Shown here: positions 11,154 through 36,678 of the stretch, in pieces
Layout of the letters: each line of letters opens with the position of its first letter
How positions within the stretch are numbered: the stretch's first letter is position 1
Virus record (IMG/VR): IMGVR_UViG_3300040758_000113
Reading direction: 5' to 3' (one strand)
Length of the DNA: 42,839 nucleotides
Source: a virus
The notes under the pieces: model-generated
Seen by the model: the letters and a program-made list of their open reading frames with translations, nothing else
The model's database searches: none
Told to the model about the DNA's origin: nothing
Position numbers and translations under genes: made by a program

Positions 11154-11204
11154 CCCGCTTAGGTGAAGAGGGATAATACCAGTTCTCCTCTTCACCTAAG
11201 CGGG
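11154..11204. terminator. Perfect 18-bp inverted repeat hairpin (15-nt loop) between convergent genes; candidate bidirectional terminator
   Basis: cccgcttaggtgaagagg (11154-11171) pairs with cctcttcacctaagcggg (11187-11204). It lies between the + gene ending at 11094 and the - gene ending at 11196. U-tracts are weak. Confidence 0.45.
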
Positions 11205-12495: not shown

Positions 12496-13039
12496 AAAAC
12501 CCAATCATACCACCCCTCAAACGATTACACTTATTACATGAAATAACTAGATTTTCTGGACTATTATCCTCTTTAATTTCATTTAAGTGGTCACCCACAA
12601 TATCCTTCCATTCAAGAGTATTTCCACACCAAAAACAGGGGTGAACGCCGGGACCATACCTATCGTATAAAACTTTTCTGTGTTCTAAAACGTATCCCGC
12701 ACTAATCGCTAAAGGATGCTGAGGGAGGATTAGTCTTACATACCCATCTTTCTTGACGGCACGAAACTTAACTCCTTGTCTAACCACACTGCCCGTTCTT
12801 CTTTGTTGATAATAACAAGCCTCACATAGACCGTAGGTGGGGCGGTCAACCAGCTTACCACAATTTGGTGTATTACAAACTAACGCTCTTTTAATTTTTC
12901 TTCTGGATTTTAAGGTAGACTTTTCATACTCGGTTCTACACTTAACAGAGCAATATTTGCGGTCTGTACCCCTACCAACTTGGTAAGAAAACTCTCTTCC
13001 ACAAATACAGGTACGAAATCTCTCCGTTAGTTTATCCAT
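12386..13039 (-). CDS. HNH endonuclease (HNH_3-like) with N-terminal Cys-rich region
   Basis: GYVLEHRKVLYDRYG...CFWCGNTLEW...HLNEIKEDNSPENLVISCNKCN. The 3' end overlaps the convergent + HNH gene by ~110 nt. Confidence 0.6.
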   Translation of the reverse strand: MDKLTERFRTCICGREFSYQVGRGTDRKYCSVKCRTEYEKSTLKSRRKIKRALVCNTPNCGKLVDRPTYGLCEACYYQQRRTGSVVRQGVKFRAVKKDGYVRLILPQHPLAISAGYVLEHRKVLYDRYGPGVHPCFWCGNTLEWKDIVGDHLNEIKEDNSPENLVISCNKCNRLRGGMIGFFKCLRPEALPIFLKCMEGWIIPFVKEPPVFQTLPFS

Positions 13040-13156: not shown

Positions 13157-13744
13157 TCAATGTGCATCCCCTTTTTCCTTCTTGATGCGCTTCATTACCT
13201 TCCGGCTGAGGGCATTCAGCCACTTGCAGTCGGCGCACGGGCGAGAGCACTTCCCTTCTCGAACCATGTTCTTTTTGAGCCGATAGTTTCCGTAATGTTT
13301 GAACGTCAAATTGGCAAGCTCGATAAGAGCTTCATCGAAAGTGGGACCGCCGCAGTCAAGCTCCACGTCATGGAAGGGCATCAGGGCGGTACTGGTATCC
13401 CACTCCGACATGTAACCCCACTCCAAGTGACCCAGTTCCAGCCAGCACTCAGGGTTGACATTCTTGGTTCTGTCATCGTTGACTTCACCCTTGTCGTCCA
13501 CGAGCGTGTAGAAGATGCTAAGGTTTTCCTCAATAGCACGATGGAACTCGTGCCGCCATTCCCGCCAGTGCTGACCACCCCTGTCTTTGGTAACGATGAA
13601 TCCCTTCCGCTTGGACCGGGCGGCATCCACAGGAGACTCCGGGGTTCTCACCCGACAGTTAAGTTTAGGATGGTAGTAGAGAAACCACCAAGCCCCAAAA
13701 CCATCTGTTATCTTACGTTTTTCTTGCAATTTTCCCCGTGCCAT
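13157..13744 (-). CDS. Hypothetical protein
   Basis: 195-aa ORF. C-terminus has CSRPCADCKW. No family recognised. Confidence 0.4.
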   Translation of the reverse strand: MARGKLQEKRKITDGFGAWWFLYYHPKLNCRVRTPESPVDAARSKRKGFIVTKDRGGQHWREWRHEFHRAIEENLSIFYTLVDDKGEVNDDRTKNVNPECWLELGHLEWGYMSEWDTSTALMPFHDVELDCGGPTFDEALIELANLTFKHYGNYRLKKNMVREGKCSRPCADCKWLNALSRKVMKRIKKEKGDAH

Positions 13745-14439
13745 TTATAATAGAACCTCTCTACTACGGTTTTACCGCAGTGGGGACATTGAAACCGAGT
13801 AACCGTACTCCAATAATTTTGTTGAGCGACTTTACTGTGTTTTTTACTTTCCTCGTTTCTTTTTTCACCCCGTAACCGAAACTTCCACGCTTCTCTTAAA
13901 TGTTCTCGATGAGTCTCTGATTTCGTTTTTCCTTTAAGTCCTAGACTGATTTTCTTTTTAACTTCAGTGGTCATGCTAGCTTTCTTGGCTTTAGACATCA
14001 TAGTGCGATATATTTCACTTGCTGACCGAATAACCGCAGACCTTTTCATTTTAATTAAAGTACTTTTTGAAAATTTCCTTCCTTTTAATGTCGCCGAAAT
14101 TTTAGCTCGTGTAACGGCGGACTGGTTTTTAGAGATTATTGACCGAACTTTTCTTTGTTTTTCATTTAGAGTGTATCCGGCGGTGCCTTCTCCACCATCT
14201 GTGTGATTATGGAGAATTCCGGTACCCAAATCTTTTCTACCGTATTTAGCCACCAAGCTTTTTTCCAAATTAAAGGCAGTTGGTTCATCAAGATTATCTT
14301 TAACTATTTGAATTCGTGTTAAATCACGAGGGTGAAACCTCCGACTGGCGTTAAACGCCCGTTTGCCATGGCCCTTACCAACATAATAAGGGGTACCATC
14401 CTTTCGTAGAAATACGTACACATAAAAATTATTTAACAT
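13708..14439 (-). CDS. GIY-YIG homing endonuclease with NUMOD3-type repeats and C-terminal zinc finger
   Basis: YVYVFLRKDGTPYYVGKGHGKR (GIY-YIG). Repeated KISATLKGRK / KISLGLKGKTKSETHREHLREA. CPHCGKTV...HGENC. Confidence 0.7.
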   Translation of the reverse strand: MLNNFYVYVFLRKDGTPYYVGKGHGKRAFNASRRFHPRDLTRIQIVKDNLDEPTAFNLEKSLVAKYGRKDLGTGILHNHTDGGEGTAGYTLNEKQRKVRSIISKNQSAVTRAKISATLKGRKFSKSTLIKMKRSAVIRSASEIYRTMMSKAKKASMTTEVKKKISLGLKGKTKSETHREHLREAWKFRLRGEKRNEESKKHSKVAQQNYWSTVTRFQCPHCGKTVVERFYYKWHGENCKKNVR

Positions 14440-14564
14440 TCATAACTCCCCACATAGGGAAATCATATTGGTTCTTTTATAAACACCCATTTAATTATCG
14501 GACCTATGAAGCAAAGAAAATATTACGTTTTGGCTTATTTATAATACTGAGTTTTATGGGAAAT

Positions 14565-15799: not shown

Positions 15800-16462
15800 T
15801 TATGCTAAGGCGTGAAACACGCCTCGGTCACCACTCCAGTTAGCGGGTTTGTATTTAATGCTGACCATGTGGGCATCATTGAAACCAGCGAACTTTAGCC
15901 AAGATTCAACGCATGGGGGATTTGGTCCCCAAAGGCATGTGGGGTCACCGTAAGGCTTGTTTTTATCATAGAAACTGCATATGGGTTCTTCCTTGAAAAT
16001 CCAATCCAAATGGGTTTCCAAGATGAGCTTTCCCTTGCAGACAGAGTGAAGCTTCTGGAGGGCAAGAAGGGGGTTTTGAAAGTGGTGGAGCGCCCCGAGG
16101 CAAAGAACGAAGTCATACTTCCCAAGAAGGTCCGGGTCCAAGTCATGAACATCAAGTTTTATCCCCACCACCTTGGAATTTAACACTCGTGTGGCGAGGT
16201 CAAATCCCCGGCGTCCGGTGTCAAAGCACCACGTATCCACGGCAGTCACCGCAGAGGCCCCCCGGCGCTCGCACAAGAAGCTCCACCAGCCATCCCACGC
16301 ACCTACATCCAGTACGCTCTTGCCGGTTAAGTCCTCGGGGAGATGCAAACGACGAAGCTTCTCCTCGCTGTCGGTGGTGCCGGGGGTGATGACCCCGTCG
16401 CCAAGGTCAATCCTGTGCCACCACTTAATTGCATCAATTTCGGCCTTAAGTTTTAGATTCAT
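15800..16462 (-). CDS. Class I SAM-dependent methyltransferase
   Basis: Motif I GKSVLDVGAWDGWWSF, plus the acidic loop and a DFVLCLGALHH-type motif. Confidence 0.6.
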   Translation of the reverse strand: MNLKLKAEIDAIKWWHRIDLGDGVITPGTTDSEEKLRRLHLPEDLTGKSVLDVGAWDGWWSFLCERRGASAVTAVDTWCFDTGRRGFDLATRVLNSKVVGIKLDVHDLDPDLLGKYDFVLCLGALHHFQNPLLALQKLHSVCKGKLILETHLDWIFKEEPICSFYDKNKPYGDPTCLWGPNPPCVESWLKFAGFNDAHMVSIKYKPANWSGDRGVFHALA

Positions 16463-17033
16463 GTAAACCCATCTTTTTTATATAATGGCTTGCTGTAATC
16501 AAATAGTCAATGAATTCCATATAAGACATATTACTTTTACAACGATTACATATTTTGCAACAAGTCACCGTATTTCCCTCTGTATAACCGCAATCATTAT
16601 TCATGCGGTCCAGACCGTTGTATATAAAAGCCCCATTGTTAGCTTTAGTTTTTGCACATCCAACAGGGGGTCTACCACAGTAATGACAAGGCTGACAAAC
16701 AAGAGTATCGAATTGGGCATCGCTTAATGCCCACTCGTATCCACGTTTTTTTGCTTGGTTTTTATAGATTGAGAGAACCCGGTTTCTCATACTTTGACCG
16801 GCAGGGAGTTTATTCCCGGATGCTTTGCCTAATCTACACTTTCTTGCATTTTCTCTTTGAAGACACCCACAACTCTTTACAGCACCACTAATCAGGTGTC
16901 TTCCTAAAGTGGGTTTTTCTACACCACAATCACAACGAGCCAACCACTTTATTTTTTGGTACTTATCCCTGCCAAACAATTTAAGGATGGTTAATCTACC
17001 AAAACGCATTCCCGTCAAATCTTTGAACATCAT
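16446..17033 (-). CDS. HNH endonuclease with zinc-ribbon repeats (paralog of 11196-12020 and 41210-41974)
   Basis: CHYCGRPP...NGLDRMNNDCGYTEGNTVTCCKICNRCKSN. N-terminal WLARCDCGVEK...CGCLQ repeat. Start set at the MMFKDL ATG (17033), which has a GGGGA RBS and avoids a 46-nt overlap with the glycosyltransferase gene. The track gives 17117. Confidence 0.6.
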   Translation of the reverse strand: MMFKDLTGMRFGRLTILKLFGRDKYQKIKWLARCDCGVEKPTLGRHLISGAVKSCGCLQRENARKCRLGKASGNKLPAGQSMRNRVLSIYKNQAKKRGYEWALSDAQFDTLVCQPCHYCGRPPVGCAKTKANNGAFIYNGLDRMNNDCGYTEGNTVTCCKICNRCKSNMSYMEFIDYLITASHYIKKMGLHESKT

Positions 17034-17071
17034 TTGATGTACATCCCCAAATAAGCAAATGATAATCCATA

Positions 17072-18232
17072 TTATGACCAGAGGTCTTTGACTAACTGAA
17101 TAAGCTGGCTTACCCAACCGGGTTCTTCCACTTCCGGGACAGGCTCGGGAGCCGGGATGACCGGCTCCTCTGGTTCCTCATCGTAGAGATAGTTCTTCCA
17201 CAGACGAAGACCTTTGTGGTTGTGCTCGTTGAGAGCTTCCTTACCATCAAGCCACGCCCGTGGGTCGTCCAGAAGGTGAAGGCCCACGTTGGCGATGTTC
17301 TCCGGGCTATCGGGGTTTGCCTTCCACTGCTTGGGTGCCCATCGCACAGCGTCAGAGACCACGGTAGGAACTCCCATGACCACACCATCCGCCGTCACGA
17401 TATTGAACGACTCGGTGAATGACGGCTGAAACAGGAGGTCCATGGTTCTCACGAGTTCGGAGAACTTTTCCCACGGCATCCACCTGTGCTTGACTACATC
17501 AAATCCGGGGATAGCCTGAGACATCTGTTCAATCGTGTTAACAATGGCCTTGCCCTCAGACTCCCCTCCCTGATTGATATGGAAAGAGACGGGCACCTGC
17601 AAGCGGTTCTGAATGAGAAGACCGGCAGCAACCGCCGAGGGGATGTTCTTCTCCGGGCGGAGTGCGCCGAATGCACCAAGACGTAGAGGTTGAGATGAGA
17701 ACCGTACCTTGCCCTCGTGATGGCCCCGACTGGAATACAAGTCAGGCAGCAGGAAGGTATTGACCCCATAGGCTTCACTGAACCACTGGGTGAATGAACG
17801 AGAGTTCCCGGATACCGAAAGGTTGGGAAGGTCGTTCATCAAGTCGGCGTACTGGCGGAAGTTTCCTATTCCCCGGTAATCGCCATATAAAGCCGCCACG
17901 TTACAATGCGACTTTACGGTGAACTCCATGTCGGGGAAGTAGTTGACCAGTGCCTTCAAATCCAGCGGCGTAATCCACGGTGCCATGATGACACAGTGGG
18001 TCAATGGACCCTTGCCTTCTTTCGCTCGCTTGCCATTGTGAAAGAGAATGGACTGGAGAAGCTCAACGTTATCTTTAACGCCGATAACGTAAGTCCTGAT
18101 TCCATGTTGGTTAAGTTCTTCCGCTGTCTTCTTTGCTGCTACGGCGAGACCCACCGAACTGTACCCTGTCCAAAAGGCAAAGTCCTTGTAGCATAGGGCA
18201 ACTGCCACTTTTTTCCTGCACCCCTCACTCAT
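17072..18232 (-). CDS. GT-B fold glycosyltransferase (family 4-like)
   Basis: C-terminal FQPSFTESFNIVTADGVVMGVPTVVSD matches the E-x7-E / G-x-P motif of retaining GT4 enzymes. Length ~386 aa. Confidence 0.6.
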   Translation of the reverse strand: MSEGCRKKVAVALCYKDFAFWTGYSSVGLAVAAKKTAEELNQHGIRTYVIGVKDNVELLQSILFHNGKRAKEGKGPLTHCVIMAPWITPLDLKALVNYFPDMEFTVKSHCNVAALYGDYRGIGNFRQYADLMNDLPNLSVSGNSRSFTQWFSEAYGVNTFLLPDLYSSRGHHEGKVRFSSQPLRLGAFGALRPEKNIPSAVAAGLLIQNRLQVPVSFHINQGGESEGKAIVNTIEQMSQAIPGFDVVKHRWMPWEKFSELVRTMDLLFQPSFTESFNIVTADGVVMGVPTVVSDAVRWAPKQWKANPDSPENIANVGLHLLDDPRAWLDGKEALNEHNHKGLRLWKNYLYDEEPEEPVIPAPEPVPEVEEPGWVSQLIQLVKDLWS

Positions 18233-19888: not shown

Positions 19889-20614
19889 ATGGCACGACTC
19901 GTCCATTCATGGCAAGACCTATGCGCTTGCGGAAATCCTAAGAACCGCTACGCAGTAGAATGCCAGCAATGCCACTTGAAAAACCGCAGGGATACTTGCG
20001 TATGCGGTAAACCTAAATATAAAACTAAACCCTTGTGTCGGGACTGTAACCACAAACGAGACTTCTGCCCCTGTGGTCTTACAAAGGACAAGAGGGCACT
20101 GAGATGCACGGTGTGCAAGGGCAAAGAGCCATTAGAAAAAAGGTGCAACAGGTGTGGAAATCCTTTCCCAATTGAGGCATATAGTCTCAGACCTGATGGC
20201 AGGGGCGGACATAAACGACGTAGCCGCTGCAAGAAGTGCGAGTCAGACGAACAAAAGGAACGGCGTTCCAAGTTTCCGAAGAAAGCTAAGGACATAAAAC
20301 AACGCTCGTTGGAAAGATGCAAGAAAGACCCTGTGCGCTCAGCCAAGGCACAGAAAGCCCAATGGCGGCGGCAATGGAGAAAATTAGGACTCGACCCCAA
20401 AGAGGTCTTCAAATGGATAGAAATTCATGGGTGGTTCTGTGCTATCTGCGGGGAAGCAGTGGGTCATCGGACACGGGCAGCGGACCACGACCACATCACA
20501 GGAAAATTTCGTGGTATTTTATGCTCAAGATGTAATCCCGGTCTCGGTATGTTCAAAGATAAACCTGAACTACTTAGGAAAGCGGCACAATACTTAGAAG
20601 ATTCTATAAGGTAG
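19889..20614 (+). CDS. Endonuclease VII-family (T4 gp49-like) nuclease with N-terminal CxCG...CxxC repeats
   Basis: CAICGEAVGHRTRAADHDHITGKFRGILCSRCNPGLG (Endo VII core). N-terminal repeats CACGNPKNRYAVECQQCH, CVCGKPKYKTKPLCRDCNHK, CPCGLTKDKRALRCTVCKG. Confidence 0.7.
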   Translation: MARLVHSWQDLCACGNPKNRYAVECQQCHLKNRRDTCVCGKPKYKTKPLCRDCNHKRDFCPCGLTKDKRALRCTVCKGKEPLEKRCNRCGNPFPIEAYSLRPDGRGGHKRRSRCKKCESDEQKERRSKFPKKAKDIKQRSLERCKKDPVRSAKAQKAQWRRQWRKLGLDPKEVFKWIEIHGWFCAICGEAVGHRTRAADHDHITGKFRGILCSRCNPGLGMFKDKPELLRKAAQYLEDSIR

Positions 20615-21393: not shown

Positions 21394-21597
21394 TTAAACT
21401 CCCTTCATGAGTGCTTTGAAGCACAGTTCAGAGGCGTCGGTCAGCACCTTCTTGGCGATTTCAAGCTTATCCTCGTAGAGGATGCCGCTGGACATATCGT
21501 TGTAGAACTCCAATGAGAGGAGTGGTGCGTGGTCATCTTCCGGGTCACTGGCGATGAACTTCTTCTGATTGATAGTACTGTAAATCTCTAATTTCAT
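21394..21597 (-). CDS. Hypothetical small protein
   Basis: 67-aa ORF whose start overlaps the stop of the upstream gene (ATGA). Confidence 0.3.
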   Translation of the reverse strand: MKLEIYSTINQKKFIASDPEDDHAPLLSLEFYNDMSSGILYEDKLEIAKKVLTDASELCFKALMKGV

Positions 21598-22499
21598 AAG
21601 TGTTTCCCCAGTTCATAACCGGCTAATAGCGCCCCGGCAATCTCCGCACCCTTTTTGGTGCCCGCCCAAATTTTCTGCCATCTCGTCTTGACGGATACTG
21701 CCTTGTACTTCTTCACAGTGTCTTGGCACTGCCCGTTGGCGAGCTTAAGCTTGTCATCATCGGCCCGAAGAGCATTGAAATCCGTAGTCAGGCTGGCGTT
21801 GGTCTTGGTCAGACCGTCAATGGTCTGGTTCTTGGTTGTTATCTGTTGGTTAAGGTTGTCCACGTTACTTGCCAGCCGGTCCCGGTCCAGTTTCGTGGCG
21901 GTAAACTGCTGCACGATGGTGATGGGGAAGGTGAGCAACTGTTCTTTCGTCGCCGGGTCGGCGGATACGTTAAGTGTGAGCGGCAGCGGGGTGTTCTTGT
22001 AAGAATCCTTCAAGTCCCCGAATACTTCCTGTGCCGACTTGCCCGGCTGGAGAACGGCGGTAATGGACTGGTCAACCTTGGTGTTGAGGTCTTTTAGTTG
22101 CTGAATGAGGCCAGCTTCCTTGGCGTTGGCGGCGGCAATCTGTGTGGCCCATTGCGCCCGGTCAGCGGCATGTTCCGTCGCCTCCTTCTGATACTGGCTG
22201 TCGGCCTGCTTCCACGACTGCTCATACTGAACCATGAGCTTCTCAGAAGCCTCCGCCCGCTGCATGAGTTTGTCATATCCTTTAAGGCCGTAGTACGCTC
22301 CTACGCCGCCACAGGTGAGAACAAAAAACAGGATGAGAACGATGACATAGTTGAGCGTGATATGGTGGTTCACCATCTTATTCAAAATTTCCTGCGGCAC
22401 AGTTACGGTGGGGGCGACCGGGGCCGGGGGCGACAATGGACCCGTATATCCCGTGTTGCCCATATATCCCGTGGTTCCCGTGGGTGCGATATTACTCAT
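21594..22499 (-). CDS. Membrane-anchored coiled-coil protein (single predicted TM helix)
   Basis: HHITLNYVIVLILFFVLTCGGVGAYYGL hydrophobic span, followed by a long heptad-like region. Confidence 0.45.
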   Translation of the reverse strand: MSNIAPTGTTGYMGNTGYTGPLSPPAPVAPTVTVPQEILNKMVNHHITLNYVIVLILFFVLTCGGVGAYYGLKGYDKLMQRAEASEKLMVQYEQSWKQADSQYQKEATEHAADRAQWATQIAAANAKEAGLIQQLKDLNTKVDQSITAVLQPGKSAQEVFGDLKDSYKNTPLPLTLNVSADPATKEQLLTFPITIVQQFTATKLDRDRLASNVDNLNQQITTKNQTIDGLTKTNASLTTDFNALRADDDKLKLANGQCQDTVKKYKAVSVKTRWQKIWAGTKKGAEIAGALLAGYELGKHL

Positions 22500-22503
22500 G
22501 ATT

Positions 22504-23688
22504 CTACTCCTCTTTGCTGCTACCTAAAGGAATTGGTAGTGAGGGGTCCACCTTTGCCATCTGTTTAGCGGAAAACTTATAGGTATCTCCATACTTCTTC
22601 ACCACTTCCCGGTAGTTTTTGAAGGCTGGATTTTCCTTTTTCACCCAGTGCTTCATGACGTTATCCTTCACTATTGTGTAAATAATGAAGTAGTTCTTAG
22701 GGGATTTGACTTCCCCTTTCTTGATGGCCTCCACAATTTTGGCAGCGATGGTGGAGGGAACGTGGATGCCATCCACGAGAATGAGTTTGCGCACAAGGGC
22801 TGTGACCGTCTTCTGCCGGGACTTCTTGAGCGGCTCGTGCTGGTCTTTCCGCTTGGCGGTGGGAACGAGGGGAGACTCTCCCAGCTTGGTGTCTTCCCGG
22901 ATGAGGCTTAAAGCCTCCTTGATATCCTTCGCCCGGCTGGCGGCGGCAAACTTCCTGCGGACAGTGGAGTCCTTGATTTCCCCAATCTCTTTTTCGGTAG
23001 TTGCTTCCTTGAGCGCCTCAGCCTCTTCGGCGTCGAACTCAGCATAAAGTTCGGAGAGGGCCTTTTCTCCTTCCTTTTCGTCATCTTCCTTGAGGGTGGA
23101 AACAAGGGGACAATAGTAGTAAGTTCGTATGTCTTTGGGAACATAGGAGAGGTTGAGGAGGTTCCGAACAGGGGTCTCCAGCATGATACTCTTGGTCTTC
23201 AAGGTTATGCGAATGACCGCCCGCCCGGCTCCAATAGCTGTTACCGTCCCACAGAAATCTCGGGTCTCGCCGTTAAGAACCCGGACAAAGGACCCCACCT
23301 CTACCCCGGAGGAGTGTTCCCTGAACTGCTTCTCGGCAGGGGACATAAGCTTCTGAACTTCCGTGTCGGAGACTCTTATTACCTTATTTGGCCGGTTTGA
23401 ATCTCCCTCAGTGACCAGAGACACCACACCCGTGATGGTCTTTAGCCGCAATAGCCCTTGGAAACTATCACTGCGGACAAAGAGGTACGCCGCCGCCGTG
23501 AGGTCAAAAACGTCAAGGTCCCGGTGACCTACCGGTATGAACAATTCCACAGCATCTTCTCGAAAAATCTGAGGTATTTGTTTGCCTATCCGGCGTAGGG
23601 TGGGTTCGATGGTCTTCTCGCTGCGAACTTCCAGCATACACCACTCCTTGCCTTTCAGCTTGGAGCAGTCTCTATATGTTAGTAACAT
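22504..23688 (-). CDS. NusG-like (NGN + KOW) domain protein; putative phage transcription elongation/antitermination factor
   Basis: KOW-like GSFVRVLNGETRDFCGTVTAIGAGRAVIRITLKTKSIMLETPV, preceded by an NGN-like N-terminus. Long lysine-rich C-terminal extension. Confidence 0.4.
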   Translation of the reverse strand: MLLTYRDCSKLKGKEWCMLEVRSEKTIEPTLRRIGKQIPQIFREDAVELFIPVGHRDLDVFDLTAAAYLFVRSDSFQGLLRLKTITGVVSLVTEGDSNRPNKVIRVSDTEVQKLMSPAEKQFREHSSGVEVGSFVRVLNGETRDFCGTVTAIGAGRAVIRITLKTKSIMLETPVRNLLNLSYVPKDIRTYYYCPLVSTLKEDDEKEGEKALSELYAEFDAEEAEALKEATTEKEIGEIKDSTVRRKFAAASRAKDIKEALSLIREDTKLGESPLVPTAKRKDQHEPLKKSRQKTVTALVRKLILVDGIHVPSTIAAKIVEAIKKGEVKSPKNYFIIYTIVKDNVMKHWVKKENPAFKNYREVVKKYGDTYKFSAKQMAKVDPSLPIPLGSSKEE

Positions 23689-23691: not shown

Positions 23692-23710
23692 CCTCCACAG
23701 TATAATACTG
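23692..23710 (-). promoter_or_regulatory. AGTATTATA box abutting the Shine-Dalgarno of gene 22504-23688 (candidate phage promoter -10-like element)
   Basis: Minus strand reads cagtattatactgtGGAGGaccATG. The same architecture recurs at 26109-26126, 36661-36678, 41213-41234, 7288-7302 and 19299-19312 on the minus strand, and at 9688-9700 and 19341-19358 on the plus strand. Confidence 0.3.
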
Positions 23711-23715: not shown

Positions 23716-24465
23716 TTAGCGCAAACGTCCTAGCTTATCCCGTTGTCTTCCCTGTGTGCTTTTACTGATTTTGGCACGTATCTCGGGAGAAAGCCGTCTC
23801 GCACTCGCTATTTTACTAAGTTTGGCTCTAGTCTCATCTGACACAACCCTCTGTCTGCACTTAGCACGGAATTCTTCCGACCGTTTTCTACCACGATTGG
23901 ATGCGGATATTTTAGCAGTGCATTCGGGAGCCTGCTTTCTTCCTTTCGCTACTTTACTCATCTTGATTCTTTCCTCAATTGGAACTTCTCTGCCCGTTAA
24001 TGCATTGCTCAATTTTTGTCTTGTTTCCTGAGACACCTCTCGGTTACACATACATTTCCGTATGCTGTCAATGCGGGACTGTTTAGTCTCTGGATTAGCC
24101 CAAGCAGCCTTATTACCTTCTCCAATCTTCTTACGAGTTTCATCTGAAAGGGGTCCGGTTCTTCCCTCCCCACCCCGGCATATATTGTACCCATACTCAG
24201 GGTCCTGCGACCGCAGGAACTTGATGAAATCCCGTTCAGTTTGGTCAAGCTCTTCTCGGTCAGTGATGTCGGCCCGGAGGGCGTGTATGGACCAAGAAGA
24301 GGGGTCTGAGTGTGCTCGCATAGACTGATAAAGGCGAGATTGGTTTGAGATACCTCTTTGGGCGTGGTGAAACTTCTGCTGAAGATATTTCTTTAGATTG
24401 TTCCCCTTATGCTGACCGACATAGTACTTACCGGTCTCGTGGTTAACAATGAGATAAATGAACAT
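23716..24465 (-). CDS. GIY-YIG homing endonuclease, paralog of 6118-6969
   Basis: MFIYLIVNHETGKYYVGQHKG is nearly identical to the N-terminus of ORF 6118-6969. Basic repeat-rich C-terminus. Confidence 0.75.
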   Translation of the reverse strand: MFIYLIVNHETGKYYVGQHKGNNLKKYLQQKFHHAQRGISNQSRLYQSMRAHSDPSSWSIHALRADITDREELDQTERDFIKFLRSQDPEYGYNICRGGEGRTGPLSDETRKKIGEGNKAAWANPETKQSRIDSIRKCMCNREVSQETRQKLSNALTGREVPIEERIKMSKVAKGRKQAPECTAKISASNRGRKRSEEFRAKCRQRVVSDETRAKLSKIASARRLSPEIRAKISKSTQGRQRDKLGRLR

Positions 24466-24500
24466 AACTTCTTCCCGATTAAGGATTAGGAAGTTGTTTT

Positions 24501-25607
24501 TTACAAAACTTCACCTTTCAGGATGGCTTGGCTGGAAGAGAAATTCTTGCTTGGAGCATTGGTCGGCGGCTTGACTGATTTGAGGATTCTCGCCGCCGCC
24601 ATAAGCTCGTACACAAAAAGGGGGAGGGCATCAGCGGGAATGAACGGGGTCGCTAACCATTTGAGAAATATAGCGGAAGTCTCCTTAATGTTGGGGAGCG
24701 TCTCAGCAATACGAGCAAGCTCCGAGGCTGGCTCCGACCATGGGGACTTGGCATAAAGGGAAAAGGTAGTTTCAATGACCTTGGTTGGAAGCGCTACCCG
24801 TGCGCCATCGTCGGCAAGCTTGACGGCAGCGGCTTGGTCCCCATGGCTTATAGCCAGCAGGATGCTGTAGCATACGCTTTCTAGGGGATTATCCAGAACC
24901 TTGTCAACGTTCTCCCTGTTCACCTTGCCCAGTGCGGCGGCGAATCCCAGCCAACGGACCGCCTCCCTTATGATGCCTTTGGAGTGTTTGGCGATGTCCT
25001 TGATAGCATCAAGTTCATAGTCAATGCCGTTACGGGAGGCTATGCTCGCCATCAGGCCGGTAATCACGTCGTCTGTGGCACGATAGAAAGTCAGCGGCAA
25101 ACAGCGGGACTGGATGGTCTTGGGGATGCGGTTGTCATCGGTGGTAACGAACATGAAGATACTGTCAGTGTCGGGGCGCTCCAGTGGCTTGAGGAAAACA
25201 TCCCAAGCTTCCGAAGAAAGCCGATGGGCTTCATCAATCACAGCGACCCGGCGCTTCCCAGTGATGGGCGGCTGCGCCATGCAGTCCATTAAATTGCGGG
25301 CATCTTGCACGCCGGGGTGTTCAGCAGCATCCGTTTCAAAGAAGTCGGCGTCATGCTCAATTGTCTCTTGGTCGATGAAGCGACAGGAGGGGCACGTTCC
25401 ACAACCCAGTGGGTCACTCCCGGCGCACATGAGCGCACGGGAAAGAAGGTAGGCCACAGAGGTTTTCCCAAGGCCCCATGGACCTTTGAGGATGAAACCA
25501 CGAGGAAGAAACTTTCCCGTAGTCAGGAGACTCTTGAGTAAGGATACGACTCTGTCTTGTCCCACGACTTCGCTCCAAGCCGTGGGACGAAAGGAGATTA
25601 GATTCAT
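24501..25607 (-). CDS. Clamp-loader ATPase (DnaX gamma/tau-like AAA+)
   Basis: RPTAWSEVVGQ..., Walker A GPWGLGKTS, zinc module CGTCPSC, VAVIDEAHRLS, sensor SRC in IQSRCLPLTF. Confidence 0.7.
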   Translation of the reverse strand: MNLISFRPTAWSEVVGQDRVVSLLKSLLTTGKFLPRGFILKGPWGLGKTSVAYLLSRALMCAGSDPLGCGTCPSCRFIDQETIEHDADFFETDAAEHPGVQDARNLMDCMAQPPITGKRRVAVIDEAHRLSSEAWDVFLKPLERPDTDSIFMFVTTDDNRIPKTIQSRCLPLTFYRATDDVITGLMASIASRNGIDYELDAIKDIAKHSKGIIREAVRWLGFAAALGKVNRENVDKVLDNPLESVCYSILLAISHGDQAAAVKLADDGARVALPTKVIETTFSLYAKSPWSEPASELARIAETLPNIKETSAIFLKWLATPFIPADALPLFVYELMAAARILKSVKPPTNAPSKNFSSSQAILKGEVL

Positions 25608-26108: not shown

Positions 26109-26126
26109 CCTCCTTTGTATAATACT
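26109..26126 (-). promoter_or_regulatory. AGTATTATA box + SD upstream of gene 25626-26102
   Basis: Minus strand: gcagtattatacaaAGGAGGccagtcATG. Confidence 0.3.
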
Positions 26127-26129
26127 GCG

Positions 26130-26543
26130 TTATCTTGACGCCCGAGGGCAAGCCTTCGGGTGTTTCTTACACGCTGCGAGAATTTCCTCCACGAAGGGAA
26201 CAAAGTGAACGTACAATCCCCATCCGTTGGAAGCATTGAATTTCTCAAACCGGGCAGGGCCAGCCTTCATCTCAGCTATCGCCTTAGTGAGCGGCTCAAT
26301 AAGCCCCTCTGCCTTGGTGATACCAATCTCCTCGGGTCGCCAGAGGTGCTTATAAATACCCGCTTCCACTGCCATCCTGCCAAGATTGTGAGTGATATTG
26401 CTATCATACACAACCTCCCTTTCATCCAACTCAGGGAGAGTAGACCCGCACTCCGGGCAGTTCCGCAGCCGGTTTATCGGGTACTCAAGATAGAAATCAA
26501 GACTCATCCTTAATCTCCTCGCTGGAATCCGCTTCGGTGCCAA
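26130..26543 (-). CDS. Hypothetical protein (CPECG motif)
   Basis: 137-aa ORF. Confidence 0.4.
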   Translation of the reverse strand: MAPKRIPARRLRMSLDFYLEYPINRLRNCPECGSTLPELDEREVVYDSNITHNLGRMAVEAGIYKHLWRPEEIGITKAEGLIEPLTKAIAEMKAGPARFEKFNASNGWGLYVHFVPFVEEILAACKKHPKACPRASR

Positions 26544-27147: not shown

Positions 27148-27701
27148 AAAGAAAGACGGCCATTCCGCCCCCCGAACGACCAGCAGAGGGAGAACGTCTT
27201 TACACCTAAATCCTCAAGGATGTTCCGTAGAGCAAGGATAACATCTTTGGAAGTATTCTCAATAAACGCCTGCCCATGTGGGAAATCCAAGAGTACGGGA
27301 AATTGTTGTCGAGAAGTAACAATAGAAGAATTGACCTGTTCTTCAATAACCTCCTTTTCCTTTTTAGCGAGGAACTTAAAGGGTCTTCCCATATTTCGGT
27401 AAGAGAGTGCCTCCTTTTTTGACATCGGGTCTTGAAGGTCTTTACCCCCGTTTACTATTAGCCAAAACCCATAACATCCATTACTCAATGAGAAGTCTAA
27501 GGCGGGGGGAACTTCCTTTTCCTCATCAAGGCGGGGGCTAAAGAAGGGATTTATGCCTATGCTTTCAGTTTCGGTTCCCTTAGTTTCAGCCAAAACCGTA
27601 GCTTGTAGAAACTCCTGAATATTACCACCATTAAGGTTGTTTTGAAAAACTGTAGAATCTGATTCTATGCCGAAGATAGCCCAGTTAGAATGTCCAAACA
27701 T
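27144..27701 (-). CDS. Hypothetical protein
   Basis: 185-aa ORF with ATGA overlap to the upstream gene. Confidence 0.4.
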   Translation of the reverse strand: MFGHSNWAIFGIESDSTVFQNNLNGGNIQEFLQATVLAETKGTETESIGINPFFSPRLDEEKEVPPALDFSLSNGCYGFWLIVNGGKDLQDPMSKKEALSYRNMGRPFKFLAKKEKEVIEEQVNSSIVTSRQQFPVLLDFPHGQAFIENTSKDVILALRNILEDLGVKTFSLCWSFGGRNGRLSF

Positions 27702-28249
27702 TTTTCCTCCTCATATTTCTTAAGGTATTCAGCCAATCCTAAAATTCTTTCCTTGTTCTCGTGTAAAAACCCCAAAGCAGCATTGCATCCATTACAGAGG
27801 ATTCCTCTCACTTTCAAAGTAGTGTGATTATGGTCTATTGACCAATCCCACCCCCTCCGCCCCGGTGAAGTAGAACCACACCCTAAGTTAGCACATTTTC
27901 TTCCCTGTAATTCAAACATTTCCTTTACTTTTTCTGGAGTTAACTTATATTGCCTTTTTAAAACGGAACGTCGGCGTATAAGCTTGTCTTTTTCTGTGTT
28001 ATTTTTTCTCCACCGACGAGTTTTAGCTGCAACCTTTTCAGGATTAGCAAGCCTCCACTTTTCAACAATATTTCGGCGACATATCTTACACCGCCTTCTC
28101 TTTCCTCCCGTTAAATTGTCTTCGGTTAACGGATGACCATATTTGCAGGTTAACCGAGAATTTATATACTTTTTACCTTTTCTACAGTTAGCATATTGGG
28201 CTAACCGCTGTTTTTGTTCTGCTGTTCTCTCATAAACCCCTGTAGGCAT
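27665..28249 (-). CDS. Endonuclease VII-family nuclease
   Basis: QGRKCANLGCGSTSPGRRGWDWSIDHNHTTLKVRGILCNGCNAALG. ATG at 28249 with GAGGGGG RBS (the track uses TTG at 28255). Confidence 0.65.
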   Translation of the reverse strand: MPTGVYERTAEQKQRLAQYANCRKGKKYINSRLTCKYGHPLTEDNLTGGKRRRCKICRRNIVEKWRLANPEKVAAKTRRWRKNNTEKDKLIRRRSVLKRQYKLTPEKVKEMFELQGRKCANLGCGSTSPGRRGWDWSIDHNHTTLKVRGILCNGCNAALGFLHENKERILGLAEYLKKYEEEKCLDILTGLSSA

Positions 28250-28323
28250 AATCAACCCCCTCTCTTTCTGATATAGGGGCTGATAGTCATTTTAATGAAA
28301 ATAACCAACCCAATCACTAAAGG

Positions 28324-28674: not shown

Positions 28675-30828
28675 TTAAGGGCACTCAATTAGTCCAAAGT
28701 CTCCGTCCCGATTAACCACGTACACTGTGCGAGACCACTGGACTTTGTTGCCGGAATAGAGTCCTTCACCGATGAGGATTTCCGGGCTGAATCCAAGACC
28801 AATAGACAGGTCAGAGTTGGTGTGCTGCCATTCTCCATCCAGAGATAGCAACCTACCATCTGAACCAATTTCATCCCACCGGGCCTCATAGTTCAACACG
28901 ACGCTGTAGTCCGGGTCGGCCTTGGCTTCGTCAATGTGCGCACGAAGAGCCATAACTTCGGCGGGCGGGATGTCAGGAGCAATGACTAACGTCTTGGGCG
29001 TCATGTTACGAGACGCCAACGTGGACTGCACTTGCCGCAGCTTTTCACGGTAGATGACTGTGCGGATACAACGCTGGAGGATAGAACGACCGTGAAGCTC
29101 GTAGTCACTCTTCTTGCGGGCGAAGTGGATGACGTAAGAACCCTCGAAGGGGTCCTTGTTCAAAGCAACTTTGCCGTCCGCTTCCAACATACCCTTGACT
29201 TCGGAATCGACCTCGGGGTCTTCAAGGTATGCGGTTTTCTGCTTTTCGAGCGGTTTATAGTATACGGTCGGCCCGGCTGTCATGCTGTCCCCGGCCTCAA
29301 GCTCTATCTGCTCGGGAGGAAGGACATTGATGGCATCAAAGCCCTCGTAGTCTTTATTCTCCAAGTGGGAGAAAAGCTCCTCTTCTTCCTTACGCTTCTC
29401 ACGGATTTCCTGCAACTCCTCCAAAACCTGCTTCTTTTTCTCCAACAGTTTGATGATGCGTTTGAGTTCGAGAAGCTCCTTTTGCTTGGCGAGGGTTGAC
29501 CCTTGGGCAATGGCATTCTGCACCGCACCCACTTGGTCGCCGGGGGTCGTCGGCTCGGGAGGCATTCCCCCTCCACCACCGCCTCCCATAGGGGGAAGCC
29601 CACCGCCTCCACCTAAATCTCCACCTAAATCTCCACCCAAGTCACCGGGAGGAAGGTCTCCACCGGGTTCTCCCATGGGGTCTACACCAGCAACGCCTTC
29701 CAACCCGGCGTCTCCCATCGGCGCTCCCTCTCCACCAGCGGGTGGGGGTGCGCCCGCATCAGGAGGAGCGGCGACCTTTACCTGAATAGGGTAGTCATCG
29801 TCAGCATCATCACGGGAGATGAGTTTAGATTCTTTATTGTCCATAGCCAGCTTGATGAAGCTCTTAATGCTGACCGCTTTCTTTGTGTAGCTGATTTTCT
29901 TCTTGCGGATTTCATTCTTGACGTTGGCAATGGTTTCATCGGGGGCGAAGAGATTGAACTTAATGCCTGCCTTCTTGATTTCACAGATAACAGCGGATTT
30001 CTTTCTAAGCCAACTTGAACGCTTCTCAGGCTGGAGGAAGTCCAAGATGGCATCCGATGTACCGCCCATCATGGAGCCTTCACCTTCCATGCCCGGCTCG
30101 GTGGACTGAGAATTAGAATGCTGCTTATTCTTAGCCTTCGCTTTTTCTAACTGAGCCTTTGCCAGCTTGGAAGGTTCAACGGGTTCGGCTTCCTGAATAA
30201 AGATGAAAGCCTCTCCGATAGTCCAATACTCCCGGACTGCCTGAATCAAAACCTGAAAGAACTTGGTGCCGCTGATGAGTCCCTGATAGAAGTCGTAAAC
30301 GTAGTCGGCAAAGTCATCACTGGAACACTTGGGCTTTTCTAATGCCCACTTGGACAGGGGAAGCTCGGTGTGCATGTCGATAGCACGTCCGACGATGGGG
30401 TCCCGGTCATAGGCAAGCCGATAGAACCGGAGTTCTTCCGCCCGGCTGGCTGGCAGTTCGAGGGCGTCTACGGGAAACTCGTAGCTGTAGTAACCAATGT
30501 TGTTGCTGTCGGCGATGTCGGCATTGCCGAGGGTGCCATCACTGAACAGAGCGGCGGTCTTGTTGCGGGTAAGTTCGTACATCCCCCATCCCTGCGCCCC
30601 AAAGGGAGAGCCTTGGGTCGCCATCTGGCGGACCCGGCTAACCAGAACGTCGGCAATCATTCCGTCGTTCGTCATACTGGTCCGGGGGCCTGCGGAGGCG
30701 TATTGCTTACCACCCTTGCTGGCAGCAACCTTTCGCTTTATTTCGGTGGTCCCCACACGCAAATTGGCTCCCCGTTCCCTCTTAACCAACACGCTCTTGG
30801 GGGTCGTCGTAGTTTTCTTTTCAACCAT
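28675..30828 (-). CDS. Large hypothetical protein with internal Gly/Pro/Asp low-complexity linker and coiled-coil segment
   Basis: 717 aa. ...GDLPPGDLGGDLGGDLGGGGGLPPMGGGGGGGMPPEP... followed by KQKELLELKRIIKLLEKKKQVLEELQEIREKRKEEEE. No enzymatic motif recognised. Confidence 0.5.
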   Translation of the reverse strand: MVEKKTTTTPKSVLVKRERGANLRVGTTEIKRKVAASKGGKQYASAGPRTSMTNDGMIADVLVSRVRQMATQGSPFGAQGWGMYELTRNKTAALFSDGTLGNADIADSNNIGYYSYEFPVDALELPASRAEELRFYRLAYDRDPIVGRAIDMHTELPLSKWALEKPKCSSDDFADYVYDFYQGLISGTKFFQVLIQAVREYWTIGEAFIFIQEAEPVEPSKLAKAQLEKAKAKNKQHSNSQSTEPGMEGEGSMMGGTSDAILDFLQPEKRSSWLRKKSAVICEIKKAGIKFNLFAPDETIANVKNEIRKKKISYTKKAVSIKSFIKLAMDNKESKLISRDDADDDYPIQVKVAAPPDAGAPPPAGGEGAPMGDAGLEGVAGVDPMGEPGGDLPPGDLGGDLGGDLGGGGGLPPMGGGGGGGMPPEPTTPGDQVGAVQNAIAQGSTLAKQKELLELKRIIKLLEKKKQVLEELQEIREKRKEEEELFSHLENKDYEGFDAINVLPPEQIELEAGDSMTAGPTVYYKPLEKQKTAYLEDPEVDSEVKGMLEADGKVALNKDPFEGSYVIHFARKKSDYELHGRSILQRCIRTVIYREKLRQVQSTLASRNMTPKTLVIAPDIPPAEVMALRAHIDEAKADPDYSVVLNYEARWDEIGSDGRLLSLDGEWQHTNSDLSIGLGFSPEILIGEGLYSGNKVQWSRTVYVVNRDGDFGLIECP
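29607..29642. repeat. 3 x 12-nt tandem repeat (ctccacctaaat) encoding the GDLGG repeats
   Basis: ctccacctaaat | ctccacctaaat | ctccacccaagt, read directly from the sequence. Confidence 0.6.
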
Positions 30829-30862: not shown

Positions 30863-31510
30863 TTACGATTTCGGCTCTTCCGTGGGTCTATCCACCGCCT
30901 CGCTGTTTCTGGGAAGTAGCCTAAAATGCTCCAAAATGACCTCGTTATCGAGGCCAACTGGCAACATCTCCAACGTCGGACTTCCGGCTCTTAGAATTCC
31001 AAACTCATTATTTTTCTTACGTTTATCCACAGACTCCTTGGCTATCCTCATCCGCACGGTGCGAGCCTTACGCCGCTCCTTTTCGAGTAATTCCTCCATC
31101 TGCACGGCATATTTGACTTTCTGGGCGGAAAGCTGCTCCAGACCATATAGGGAGGTTCCCACCATGGCGAGAACGGGAGAAATGTCAGTTTTGTCCTCCT
31201 CGTCCATGTTGTCAAGCAGCCGGGAGAGCCACTTCGCCGACTCCTTCATGGAGTTTAACGCTTGCACGGCACACCCCATCTGAGAATAGACCCGTTGGGA
31301 GTTTAGCCGAAGAAGTGCTCTCTTTTGAACTACTTCCGTCTCACCATCCTCCTTAACATCCAACTCTGCTCGGAATTTGAAGGGGAGTTCCCCCTCCTTC
31401 AATCCCATCTGTTTTCGGGTCTTAAAAGTCCTGACGGGAGAGTGAGCGCACCTGTGATGGTCGCCGTAGTAAGAGCTTCCGCATTTCGTGCATTTCTTGG
31501 TCATGTGCAT
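30863..31510 (-). CDS. Hypothetical protein with N-terminal zinc ribbon (CTKCG...H..C)
   Basis: 215-aa ORF. Confidence 0.4.
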   Translation of the reverse strand: MHMTKKCTKCGSSYYGDHHRCAHSPVRTFKTRKQMGLKEGELPFKFRAELDVKEDGETEVVQKRALLRLNSQRVYSQMGCAVQALNSMKESAKWLSRLLDNMDEEDKTDISPVLAMVGTSLYGLEQLSAQKVKYAVQMEELLEKERRKARTVRMRIAKESVDKRKKNNEFGILRAGSPTLEMLPVGLDNEVILEHFRLLPRNSEAVDRPTEEPKS

Positions 31511-31929
31511 TCTGCCTTCTCTAAGTATTGGATAGCGGCAATAAGAAACCTTCCTTCACCTAAAAGACCTATTCCCATATTGCAGGTTGGGCAAAGAAGT
31601 CCTCTAACTTTTCCAGTGTCGTGGTTATGGTCTAAATGACTTTTATTCCCTTGCACGGGGATGGGTTCTTTACATATCCCGCAGCATCTATTTTGTTTTT
31701 CCCACAAGATTTCTCGTTCTTCCAGTGTAATCCCATAGAGGTGATTATGGGTATACTTTTTCTGATGTTTATACCCCCATTTTTGATTTTTTTTCTTTTT
31801 GCAGAGCCGACAATAGGTTGCTCTACCGGAAGGTTCTCTCTTCAATTTTGAAAAAGCATCCAATGGGAGCCATGATGTACAAGCGGAACACCACTTTTCC
31901 TTATCATTGAATAATCGAAGTCTACCCAT
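31501..31929 (-). CDS. Endonuclease VII-family nuclease
   Basis: YGITLEEREILWEKQNRCCGICKEP...HLDHNHDTGKVRGLLCPTCNMGIG. Confidence 0.65.
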   Translation of the reverse strand: MGRLRLFNDKEKWCSACTSWLPLDAFSKLKREPSGRATYCRLCKKKKNQKWGYKHQKKYTHNHLYGITLEEREILWEKQNRCCGICKEPIPVQGNKSHLDHNHDTGKVRGLLCPTCNMGIGLLGEGRFLIAAIQYLEKAECT

Positions 31930-31965: not shown

Positions 31966-34900
31966 TTAGGCAGGTTTCTTGAGGTAATGTTCGGGAACGG
32001 AGTCCATGGCTCGGTCATGAAGGCACATCCGTATGCCATCATGAAGCACCCATACGGACTTGTCCCCCTTACCCAGAGTGATGTCGATTTGCATAAGGGT
32101 AAGCTGGTCGGCCCCGGAGATATCGTACACGGTTACACCGGGAGGGGGTCCCTTGGTTTCCGGTACTTGGGGGGTGGAATCTACCACGGGGGGAGCTACA
32201 GTGGGTTCTGGCGGGGCTACAGGGAGGTTCTCCGCTGCGACGAACAGATTGAGGGTACCTTGGGTACCCCCAACCCCTTCTGACGCTTCCTGTGGTGAAT
32301 TCCACGAAATCTCCACTTTCAGGGGTTCGGGGACATAGCGTTTCACCGGAGCGTCTAAGGGCAGAGAACCGAGAGGTCCATATATCAAAGCTGCCGGGTT
32401 ACGGTCAGCCGGTCCAAGGCCCATCCGAGTTTCGTACTGTTCCAAGGTCTCCAACTTCGCATCATCCTCGTCGGGCATATTGTCAATACGCCAGAATTCA
32501 TCAAGCTGAATAGCCGCTATGAGCGCCCGCTGGATTTCCTTGGGGTCGGTCTGAAGTACGACTTCTTTCTTCCCCTTCTTCTTGTTGAAGCACCACCAAG
32601 CCGCTTGGAAGGCCCGCTCGTGCAGGTTTTCCTTGAGGAAGGCTTTTGCCTTTTCGACCCGAGCTTCCACCTGCGAAGAGATGGCTTTTATCAGGTTCTT
32701 GATAGTCGCACTATCCCACTCGCCGGGGAGGTACCTGTCCATACCGGATACCCTTGTCCAAGCGGCGGGGATGTGGTCATCATCACCGGTCACATGGTGT
32801 TCAACGTCCCAACTGGATCCATATTCAGCATCCGCTTCGATGGGCACCTGCCACTTCATAATCTGGTGCAGCTTGCGCAACTTCATCATGCGAGTGATAC
32901 GGGGGAGAACGAAAGGCACGTATTCATTCTTCACGGAAAAGTCGATTTCATCGTGAACCGAACAATGCAACATGAAGATGGTTGCAATAAGCGGGTCTGC
33001 TTCAACCCACTGGCGAATCTTGTTGAGAGACATCCGCATGAAATCCCCGCAGAGTCCTTGAATGGGGGCATTAACGCTGACCCGCTGAATCTTGCCCATG
33101 AACTTGCTGTAGTCCATGGTATTGCGAACGCCAGTGTCGGGGTTCTTCCACATGGAGTTGGCAAGGTTGAGATACTCTTTCCACCGGGGGTCATCAGCTT
33201 CCCTAAGCTCCTTCGACTTTTTCATGTAATCCCGATACTGCCATAGGTTCTTCTTTTCCTCCTCGTTCGGGACATGAATGTGTAGCGCCTTCATGGCGGA
33301 GTCAAACTTGATGACTCGATTCGTAGTGGTGGTGCAAATGAGTTGGTCTCGGGCAATTGCTTGTTTGCGCTGGCAAAACTCGAAGAACACCGGCACGCCC
33401 TTCCAGTAGTTTTCCACCATTTCCTCGCACCGTTGGAAGGTGATGTTGGGGTCCTGCTTCTTCATGTTCTCGTAAATGGTGTAGGCGATACCGCCGTATA
33501 AAAGTGCAAAATTGATGATTTTTGCCAAGTCACGCAGGTGCTTAGCACGGTAGTTAGGACTCTTGGAGTCGGAGAACTCCGGGAAGACCTTGCTAGCAGT
33601 GAGGGAGTGGAAGTCACCCTTGCCATGCAAAAACTCATTGATGAATTCCGGCTCACCCGAGCAGTTGGCGGCGGCACGCATTTCGATATTGCCGTAGTCA
33701 ACGGTGAAGAATGTCCATCCGGGCGGCGAGTAGAACAAGCAGCGGAGATTGACTCTCTGGTTGGCATCAATCTTACCGTTCTCAATAAGGAAGCCAAACT
33801 TATCTTTGCAGGTCTGACAGCCCGGCACCAGACAAACGGTATAACCCATGTACTGACCCATATGATTATGGATAATACCGGGAGCCCGCTTTTTGACCTT
33901 GCGCTTGCCCATGGTAACGACGTGTTTAATCGTGGAACGGGGCTTACCATCAACCCAATCCCCGGCTGGCTCCGCCGCTACTTCCTCATCGTGCTCTTCA
34001 ACGATGTAACTCTCTTCCATCTCCCTGAAACATGAAGGGTGAAGCTCTTCCTCGGTGTGGGGTTCTATCTGGTCTTCGGGAATCTCATCGGGAATGAGGA
34101 CATTTCCCGTCACTTTCCACATCAAATAACCTTCCACCTTTTTCACAGCTTGGCTGTTAAGACCGAACCCACCATCCTTGTAAAAGTCACCGCCAGCGGA
34201 AGACAGGCGTCCCCCGGAGACCACATTCTGCTTGAGGTATATGCGGGCGGTGCCATCACTCGGGTCATAGTGGAGGCTGGAAGGGTGTAGGGAGATGTAG
34301 CTCTTGTAGTCTGAGAATACTTCGAGGAACTCATCCTCCGGGTGCAGCTTGTGGAGGTCTTCCACCACCTCGGCATCACACGAGGCTTTCTTCACGCCGC
34401 TCTTCCCACCATCCGTCATCTTGAGGGGAGCATATCCTTTGACATCAAAGAAAAGTATGCGCAGGTCGTCATTGGAATCGGGATTAAAACGGTCATGAGG
34501 TAACACCACACCGTCATCAGTGGCATTCTCTTTGTACCCAGCCGCTATGGCAAGGTCATACAGTTTCTTCTGAAATTGAGCGAGAACCCGTTGGTGCCCT
34601 TTGACAGTGCGAGTATGACGGTCGGTGTCGATAAGGAACCGCTGCCGTTCAATCCAAGTGATAGAGTCAACAAGCTCATGGTCGATGCGATGCACGGTCT
34701 TGCGGGTCCGGGCAAGGGGATGGAGCTTTTCCCATAGAAGCCAAGTACAAATGGCATCAGAGGCGGCGTAATAGAGAGCGATGTCTACGGGTATCCAACT
34801 GAAAGGAACAAAGTGCTGCTTAAGCCCGTGCTTATTCTCTTTCTTCTGCTCCAACGTGCAGGAGCAGAAAGGAGAGCCATTGTGGGGACAAGTATCCGCC

Positions 34901-36660: not shown

Positions 36661-36678
36661 CCTCCTCACTATAATACT
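36661..36678 (-). promoter_or_regulatory. AGTATTATA box + SD upstream of gene 36359-36655
   Basis: Minus strand: ttagtattatagtgAGGAGGattacATG. Confidence 0.3.

Follow-up and report, generated by a model that had tools for sequence, protein, structure and literature searches.

Introduction

To our knowledge, no transcription factor other than NusG/Spt5 is conserved throughout cellular life, and the bacterial paralogues RfaH, UpxY and LoaP serve as models for the reprogramming of RNA polymerase on particular operons. Phages are known to hijack the Nus factors of their hosts, the N and Q proteins of lambda being examples. Here we analyse a gene located at positions 22504..23688 on the minus strand of a viral DNA of 42,839 nucleotides (IMG/VR record IMGVR_UViG_3300040758_000113; the whole stretch is referred to hereafter as the window), whose product had been predicted from the sequence alone to be a phage-encoded NusG/Spt5-like protein with NGN and KOW domains followed by a long Lys-rich tail. 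Our results make it likely that this protein is a phage-specific, highly divergent and specialised NusG paralogue that is built from three modules and binds RNA polymerase; the direction of its effect, i.e. antitermination, is proposed with less confidence than its identity and its predicted contact with the polymerase.

The UpxY, LoaP and RfaH paralogues are antiterminators of long operons, and one and the same KOW region of NusG binds both Rho and S10 (PMC7819879). It has also been noted that rfaH-like genes occur on prophages (PMC7593976). NusG-like phage proteins have already been catalogued, as PHROG 6386 and in the GenBank label of the gp25 protein of phage Tunturi_5. The paper on the Tunturi phages mentions neither NusG nor an antiterminator, and in the literature searched we found neither the phrases 'phage NusG' and 'viral NusG' nor any characterised phage-encoded NusG paralogue; the family and the third domain dealt with below are undescribed in that literature, which included a jumbo-phage comparative review and reviews of NusG.

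A divergent relative of NusG and Spt5

The predicted reading frame is present and complete, on the minus strand, a detail that the original prediction had left unstated. It starts with ATG and encodes 394 amino acids (aa) plus a stop codon, as supported by the list of open reading frames (ORFs), the homologues and the AlphaFold model. A search of 5.8 billion proteins retrieved 206 homologues of 320-450 aa with 45-99% identity and, nearly throughout, 98-100% coverage, and 57 columns distributed along the whole protein, in all of its domains, are invariant across 49 aligned sequences. The number of homologues and the conservation over the entire length therefore indicate that this is a genuine gene and not a chance ORF.

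An AlphaFold2 model of the window protein, built on 49 homologues with a mean predicted local distance difference test score (pLDDT) of 88, displays the features of the superfamily, i.e. an N-terminal alpha/beta NGN domain and, C-terminal to it, a KOW motif within a five-stranded beta-barrel. The NGN domain of the model matches those of NusG, Spt5 and RfaH, four different structures of these proteins being recovered over 82-98 residues, and the KOW domain matches its counterparts in NusG and Spt5. Structure comparison also revealed the canonical order NGN-linker-KOW, with matches that span both domains in M. jannaschii Spt5 (119 aa) and in A. aeolicus NusG (121 aa). The KOW peptide singled out earlier, GSFVRVLNGETRDFCGTVTAIGAGRAVIRITLKTK, is located at residues 132-166 of the 394-aa protein; its quality as a KOW motif and the NGN-like region that was said to precede it are both supported by these fold matches and by the profile comparisons given below. 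The barrel does not stand alone as an SH3-like domain, since the NGN domain precedes it.

Profile comparison with the NusG/Spt5 family, which had been suggested as a check, pointed in the same direction. Alignment of the diverse family with E. coli NusG by hhalign (a query sequence whose C-terminal half is confirmed by the alignments of the PDB matches) gave a probability of 92.4% and an E-value of 5e-7 over 103 columns; the aligned region starts at the NGN strand GYVLVQ, takes in the GG(T/D)S(D/N)RP motif and the linker, and stops where the KOW barrel ends. When the family profile was run against all PDB sequences, 13 matches were obtained and 13 out of 13 were NusG (best E 0.007). The window protein itself matched the NCBIfam models of UpxY (E 3.8e-5, residues 64-173, 23.7 bits with a cut-off of 100) and NusG (TIGR00922; E 1.3e-4, 21.9 bits with a cut-off of 135.7) and, weakly, PHROG 6386 'transcription antiterminator' (E 9e-5, residues 66-163 only). 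Scanning 72 diverse members singly returned UpxY as the commonest weak match (32 members, best E 9e-8), along with NusG (21), mycoplasma-type NusG (7), LoaP (5) and RfaH (5). Each of these sequence matches is weak and together they are consistent; at the level of the predicted fold the window protein is a relative of the NusG/Spt5 superfamily.

Modular architecture of the protein and its family

The NGN-like domain spans residues 1-125 (23314..23688; this and all other modules on the minus strand) and consists of a beta-alpha-beta core and a helix at residues 108-124; its EGDSNRP motif aligns with GGTSDRP of E. coli NusG. The KOW domain follows at residues 126-192 (23113..23313), with the beta-barrel at approximately 131-179, and contains VGSFVRVLNGETRDFCGTV and a near-invariant L-K-T-K loop. 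Next comes a linker, residues 193-289 (22822..23112), which was delimited from alignment, secondary structure, pLDDT and composition and comprises a long acidic helical stretch (residues 193-271, isoelectric point (pI) 4.65) and a disordered basic one (residues 272-289); about 60 linker residues represent, according to the alignment, an insertion restricted to the clade of the window. Residues 290-381 (22546..22821) form a family-specific C-terminal domain of five helices (pI 10.0, 18.5% Lys, net charge +12, pLDDT >90) with the conserved motifs SRQ(K/R)TVTALV, PKNxFIxYxIxKD, NYR(E/D)V and YKFSA, for which no sequence or fold match was found in PDB, BFVD or Pfam. The protein ends in a low-confidence tail (22504..22545 including the stop codon, pLDDT 42-78) with a conserved DPxLxIP(L/V) peptide, in which P387 is nearly invariant in the alignment. 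Therefore, the C-terminal half is indeed Lys-rich as proposed (15.8% Lys), but the word tail does not hold for what is an acidic linker followed by a conserved, folded domain.

The alignment shows that the C-terminal 200 residues are kept as one unit in most homologues. The C-terminal domain is present in 186 of the 268 collected proteins, in four of them as a tandem duplicate (P0125, P0131, P0157 and P0166); there are also short forms of about 190 aa with NGN and KOW and without this domain, and a few proteins in which it occurs alone or joined to an unrelated N-terminus. The domain behaves as an independent module and, given the linker and this independently occurring conserved domain, the protein is therefore a three-module factor, not NusG plus a tail. 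The genomic surroundings of one short-form member and of one member with a stand-alone C-terminal domain were uninformative.

Inteins and homing endonucleases typically target conserved essential genes. One family member of 755 aa (P0121) harbours an intein with two LAGLIDADG motifs, whose first residue is Cys and which ends in HN followed by Cys; its insertion point is precisely FIVY|CIIKD, in the best-conserved motif of the C-terminal domain. Because the intein is inserted exactly there, this motif is suggested to be functionally critical.

Other variations affect the ends of the protein. Many relatives extend past the DPxLxIP peptide into a basic KDGRSREAR... stretch, and some members (P0029, P0060, P0068, P0072, P0107 and P0118) carry a zinc-ribbon-like CxxC...CxC end after this basic tail; another member with such an end, P0085, has been named 'ribosomal protein L32' by the Joint Genome Institute. 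Five members without the C-terminal domain (P0254, P0259, P0261, P0264 and P0267; 411-457 aa) have instead an extension of 220-260 residues N-terminal to NGN-KOW, which resembles sigma-70 region 4 or an extracytoplasmic function sigma factor; two of these extensions match TIGR02937 and one gives a weak Phage_antitermQ match.

Comparison with known NusG families

Housekeeping NusG (TIGR00922; E. coli, PDB 2jvv and 6vz7) shares with the window protein the order NGN, linker, KOW, NGN and KOW folds that superpose, the GG(T/D)S(D/N)RP motif at the end of NGN and the KOW signature G-x-x-V-R-V-x-x-G-x-x-x-x-F-x-G-x-V. In contrast to it, the window protein adds two modules, a linker (about 100 residues) and a C-terminal domain (about 90), has L-K-T-K in place of I-F-G-R, and belongs to a family found only in phages within the collections searched and closed to profile searches. 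Like UpxY (NF033644), LoaP (NF033641) and RfaH (TIGR01955), the window protein is an additional NusG copy, encoded on a horizontally moving genome whose genes form long co-directional arrays, but the third domain is missing from all three of these paralogues. Unlike UpxY and LoaP, the window gene has neither a UpxZ partner nor a capsule or polyketide operon context: whereas UpxY is encoded by the first gene of a capsular polysaccharide operon, the genes next to this one encode a clamp loader, a homing endonuclease and a membrane/coiled-coil protein. As regards RfaH, a single AlphaFold prediction, which is compatible with fold switching, gives the KOW domain of the window protein as a beta-barrel and shows no hint of an alpha-helical autoinhibited state; hhalign comparison of the family with E. 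coli RfaH gave no match. The NGN and KOW domains also match archaeal and eukaryotic Spt5 (3lpe, 4zn3 and several Spt5 KOW domains), and eukaryotic Spt5 likewise carries extra C-terminal modules beyond the NGN-KOW core, but the window protein has no Spt4 partner, a single KOW and a helical extension instead of KOW repeats or a C-terminal repeat region.

Several of our results weigh against the assignment to NusG or restrict what can be expected from it. Searching Pfam with the whole protein at E-values up to 10 gave no match to NusG (PF02357) or KOW (PF00467); the sole match, to DUF4286, was sub-threshold and was discarded. No curated model accepts the window protein, whose scores fall far under every NusG-family cut-off. 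As these thresholds are missed and the family contexts are missing, the protein lies outside the curated NusG, RfaH, UpxY and LoaP families. When 1.84 billion cluster representatives were searched exhaustively with a HMMER profile, 177 proteins were retrieved at E <=0.001, the 150 matches listed being all family members or fragments; the search stayed within this closed set and did not reach any cellular NusG. Its failure to do so argues, at the sequence level, that the family is a closed, deeply divergent lineage and not a recently captured host gene. Phe165 of E. coli NusG is a contact residue for Rho and S10, and the E. coli KOW loop I164-F165-G166-R167 aligns in hhalign to L163-K164-T165-K166 of the window protein, with the L, T and K of this loop near-invariant in the family; since Phe165 is not conserved, a NusG-type contact with Rho or S10 is not to be assumed. 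Finally, some bacterial NusG proteins stimulate pausing instead of suppressing it, so that the sign of the effect is not fixed by family membership.

Distribution of the family

Among 50,697 GenBank phage records a homologue was found in one only, Tunturiibacter phage Tunturi_5, a 309-kb jumbo myovirus with an Acidobacteriota host from Finnish tundra soil, which is the sole cultured carrier. Its gp25 (XOB77468.1) is 45% identical to the window protein, bears the GenBank label 'transcription antiterminator', has the same three-module architecture and occupies the same position after the clamp loader. IMG/VR added 26 further loci on contigs of 9-463 kb, the upper value being the largest size reached by homologue-carrying contigs. 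Searching 185,579 bacterial and archaeal species, one genome each, with two peptide patterns found no relative, and there is therefore no evidence for a prophage or cellular origin; as far as the collections searched show, the family is phage-only.

No RNA polymerase subunit is annotated in Tunturi_5 (1-300 kb), and no RNA polymerase was found among the window ORFs scanned. Tunturi_5 has two sigma factors, gp3 and gp211, the latter passing the Pfam Sigma70_r2 cut-off. In the window, the ORFs at the position syntenic with gp3 (36695-37351 and 36359-36655) were considered as a sigma factor and rejected, as they have no similarity to Tunturi_5 gp3. The lineage thus appears to use the host core RNA polymerase, which is the likely target of the NusG-like protein because Tunturi_5 has sigma factors but no annotated polymerase. 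A conserved phage-only NusG lineage, present across a clade of soil phages of 200-460 kb, would give large phages devoid of a polymerase a new way of taking over host elongation, and the C-terminal domain may prove to be a new means of tethering RNA polymerase. Experiments on this question are within reach, because Tunturi_5 gp25 sits in a cultured phage-host pair.

Proposed role and alternative explanations

In the mechanism that we favour, the NGN domain would attach to the multisubunit RNA polymerase of the host through the beta-prime clamp helices and the beta gate loop, contacts that are universal in the family (PMC7819879), and would thereby displace or exclude host NusG and possibly sigma. 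Elongation on phage DNA would become more processive, with less pausing and less termination across the long co-directional arrays of phage genes. The KOW barrel would use a family-specific partner loop, L-K-T-K for I-F-G-R of E. coli, and the basic five-helix domain, on its long flexible linker, would act as a new tether. Its most likely ligand is nucleic acid (nascent RNA or DNA) or a partner specific to the phage, and such tethering would restrict the effect to phage transcription units. By analogy with the known paralogues, a role in processive antitermination or against Rho, as originally predicted, is a reasonable inference.

The same NGN fold is equally expected of a factor working in the opposite direction, i.e. 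a decoy that takes the NusG site on host RNA polymerase and disables Rho stimulation and transcription-translation coupling or, in another form, raises pausing or termination on host DNA. The KOW partner loop unlike that of E. coli NusG and the long acidic helical insertion in the clade of the window are in line with such a host shutoff. Nonetheless, the known specialised paralogues RfaH, UpxY and LoaP all activate long operons (PMC7819879), and a conserved extra basic domain suggests that tethering has been gained over simple occlusion, which leaves this explanation unlikely. We consider it highly improbable that the protein has no part in transcription, its barrel being a generic KOW/SH3-like RNA- or ribosome-binding domain of the L24, eL27 or NdhS type with a role in translation, RNA processing or DNA metabolism: such barrels stand without NGN, whereas here the barrel follows an NGN domain that matches four structures over 82-98 residues, the order NGN-linker-KOW being the canonical one, and the profile matches run continuously over the end of NGN, including GG(T/D)S(D/N)RP, the linker and KOW.

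The position of the gene brings in another possibility, namely that RNA polymerase carries the NusG-like core and that the phage sliding clamp or the replisome is bound by the C-terminal domain or the DPxLxIP tail, which would tie phage transcription to replicating DNA through an elongation factor. T4 gp33 and gp55 acting with the gp45 clamp follow an analogous logic. The gene lies just downstream of the clamp loader in 25 of 29 loci, with an overlap of the two in Tunturi_5, which also encodes its own processivity factor, gp9, and the low-confidence tail after the C-terminal domain holds a conserved short peptide. Synteny within a conserved replication gene block is, however, a weak argument that the products are physically linked, many loci have a separate box in front of the gene, and the tail peptide matches no clamp-binding consensus known to us. 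Replication coupling is therefore very unlikely in our judgement.

Going back to the antitermination factor that we prefer, it is tempting to speculate on how it might be confined to phage DNA. The C-terminal domain, as a new nucleic-acid-binding fold, could read a phage signal and load NGN-KOW on host RNA polymerase at phage DNA only, a 'recruit-and-ride' scheme to which we give little credence in this specific form. The signal may be the lineage-wide (A)GTATTA box, which stands 5-15 nucleotides (nt) ahead of many start codons, the nascent 5' end of phage mRNAs with a short leader or none or, alternatively, the phage sliding clamp. If true, this principle of recruitment would be different from those of RfaH/ops, UpxY and LoaP, and it could extend to ribosome recruitment on the messages of related phages that have no Shine-Dalgarno sequence.

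The upstream box

The original prediction had placed one of a set of repeated boxes with a Shine-Dalgarno sequence immediately before the gene, and both elements are found there. On the minus strand the order is AGTATTATA (23709->23701), ctgt, GGAGG (23696->23692), acc and ATG, so that the Shine-Dalgarno, read from the sequence, lies 3 nt before the start codon. The window has four exact copies of AGTATTATA (14540-14548, 23701-23709, 26118-26126 and 36670-36678), all on the minus strand, when 0.12 are expected from shuffles, and variants at 9691 (+), 35668 (-) and 41225 (-). The box stands 12-15 nt before ATG with GGAGG in between, and the copy at 14540 has no start codon nearby.

Variants of the form (A)GTATT(A/G) are also seen in front of the orthologous gene in at least 14 of the 29 related loci, several of which show GTATTA-N6-ATG (N5/6 in relatives) with no Shine-Dalgarno sequence. 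One related contig (L002) contains four copies of AGTATTAG (1635, 5143, 9969 and 12075), all on the gene strand, two of them 5 nt and the other two approximately 24 and 35 nt before a start codon. No conserved -35 element was detected upstream of the box, and a sigma-70 promoter scan around the gene gave no excess of sites over shuffled sequence. On the simplest interpretation, the (A)GTATTA(T/G)A box is probably a promoter element specific to this lineage, which a phage sigma factor may recognise and which would yield mRNAs with a very short leader or none. A GC-rich hairpin, CCCGAAGGC-TT-GCCCTCGGG (26127-26170, minus strand), lies about 15 nt upstream of the AGTATTATA copy at 26118 and could be a terminator or a processing structure between transcription units.

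Genomic neighbourhood

That the gene is phage-encoded is borne out by its surroundings, as the window carries genes for a DNA polymerase (31966-35661), large terminase (37294-39564), portal protein (28675-30828), UvsX-like recombinase (39873-41210) and clamp loader (24501..25607, minus strand; PHROG 5846, E 3e-46), and additionally encodes a primase-like protein and an exonuclease. The clamp loader is the conserved upstream neighbour: in those 25 of the 29 related loci its gene starts the NusG-like gene's upstream flank at a distance of no more than 4 kb, and in Tunturi_5 the overlap of the two genes is TAGTG.

In the window, a GIY-YIG homing endonuclease gene (23716..24465, minus strand; PHROG 314, E 4e-25) lies between the clamp-loader gene and the NusG-like gene. 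It is missing from two relatives of 99% identity (L014 and L015, region 3850-4000), in which the stop codon of the clamp loader is directly followed by cAGTATTTATctaatGGAGGaccATG. Beside the insertion, the last ~125 nt of the clamp-loader gene show 67% nucleotide identity versus 97-99% elsewhere and, because of this fall next to the GIY-YIG gene, the divergent stretch, which lies with the GIY-YIG gene in the region 23716-24640, looks like a homing co-conversion tract or a target site that has been immunised. At least four other lineages (L018, L026, L033/L034 and L035/L036) have GIY-YIG homologues in this intergenic slot. These recurrent insertions and the intein of P0121, along with the conserved synteny and the 57 invariant columns, speak for the importance of the NusG-like gene.

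Homing-endonuclease-like ORFs of the GIY-YIG, HNH and endonuclease VII types are unusually dense in the window, whose 42.8 kb contain twelve of them, interspersed among core genes for replication and packaging; they are located at 2138-2752, 6118-6969, 8518-9675 (+), 11196-12020, 12386-13039, 13708-14439, 16446-17117, 19889-20614 (+), 23716-24465, 27665-28255, 31501-31929 and 41210-41974. An Rfam scan of the window returned no match.

Downstream of the NusG-like gene, a gene for a protein of 301 aa (21594-22499, minus strand; weak matches to spanin and 'hol-like' PHROGs) was considered as a conserved partner and dropped as part of the system, because it is kept only in close relatives; it is unrelated to Tunturi_5 gp26. 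Its product combines an N-terminus rich in Gly, Tyr and Thr with a membrane-like segment and a coiled coil, and the first ~250 nt of the gene are highly divergent from the relative L015, the rest being 90-95% identical. Farther away, an ORF of 1085 aa (2782-6039, minus strand) encodes an N-terminal GNAT acetyltransferase domain and gives a weak match to a SprT-like metalloprotease.
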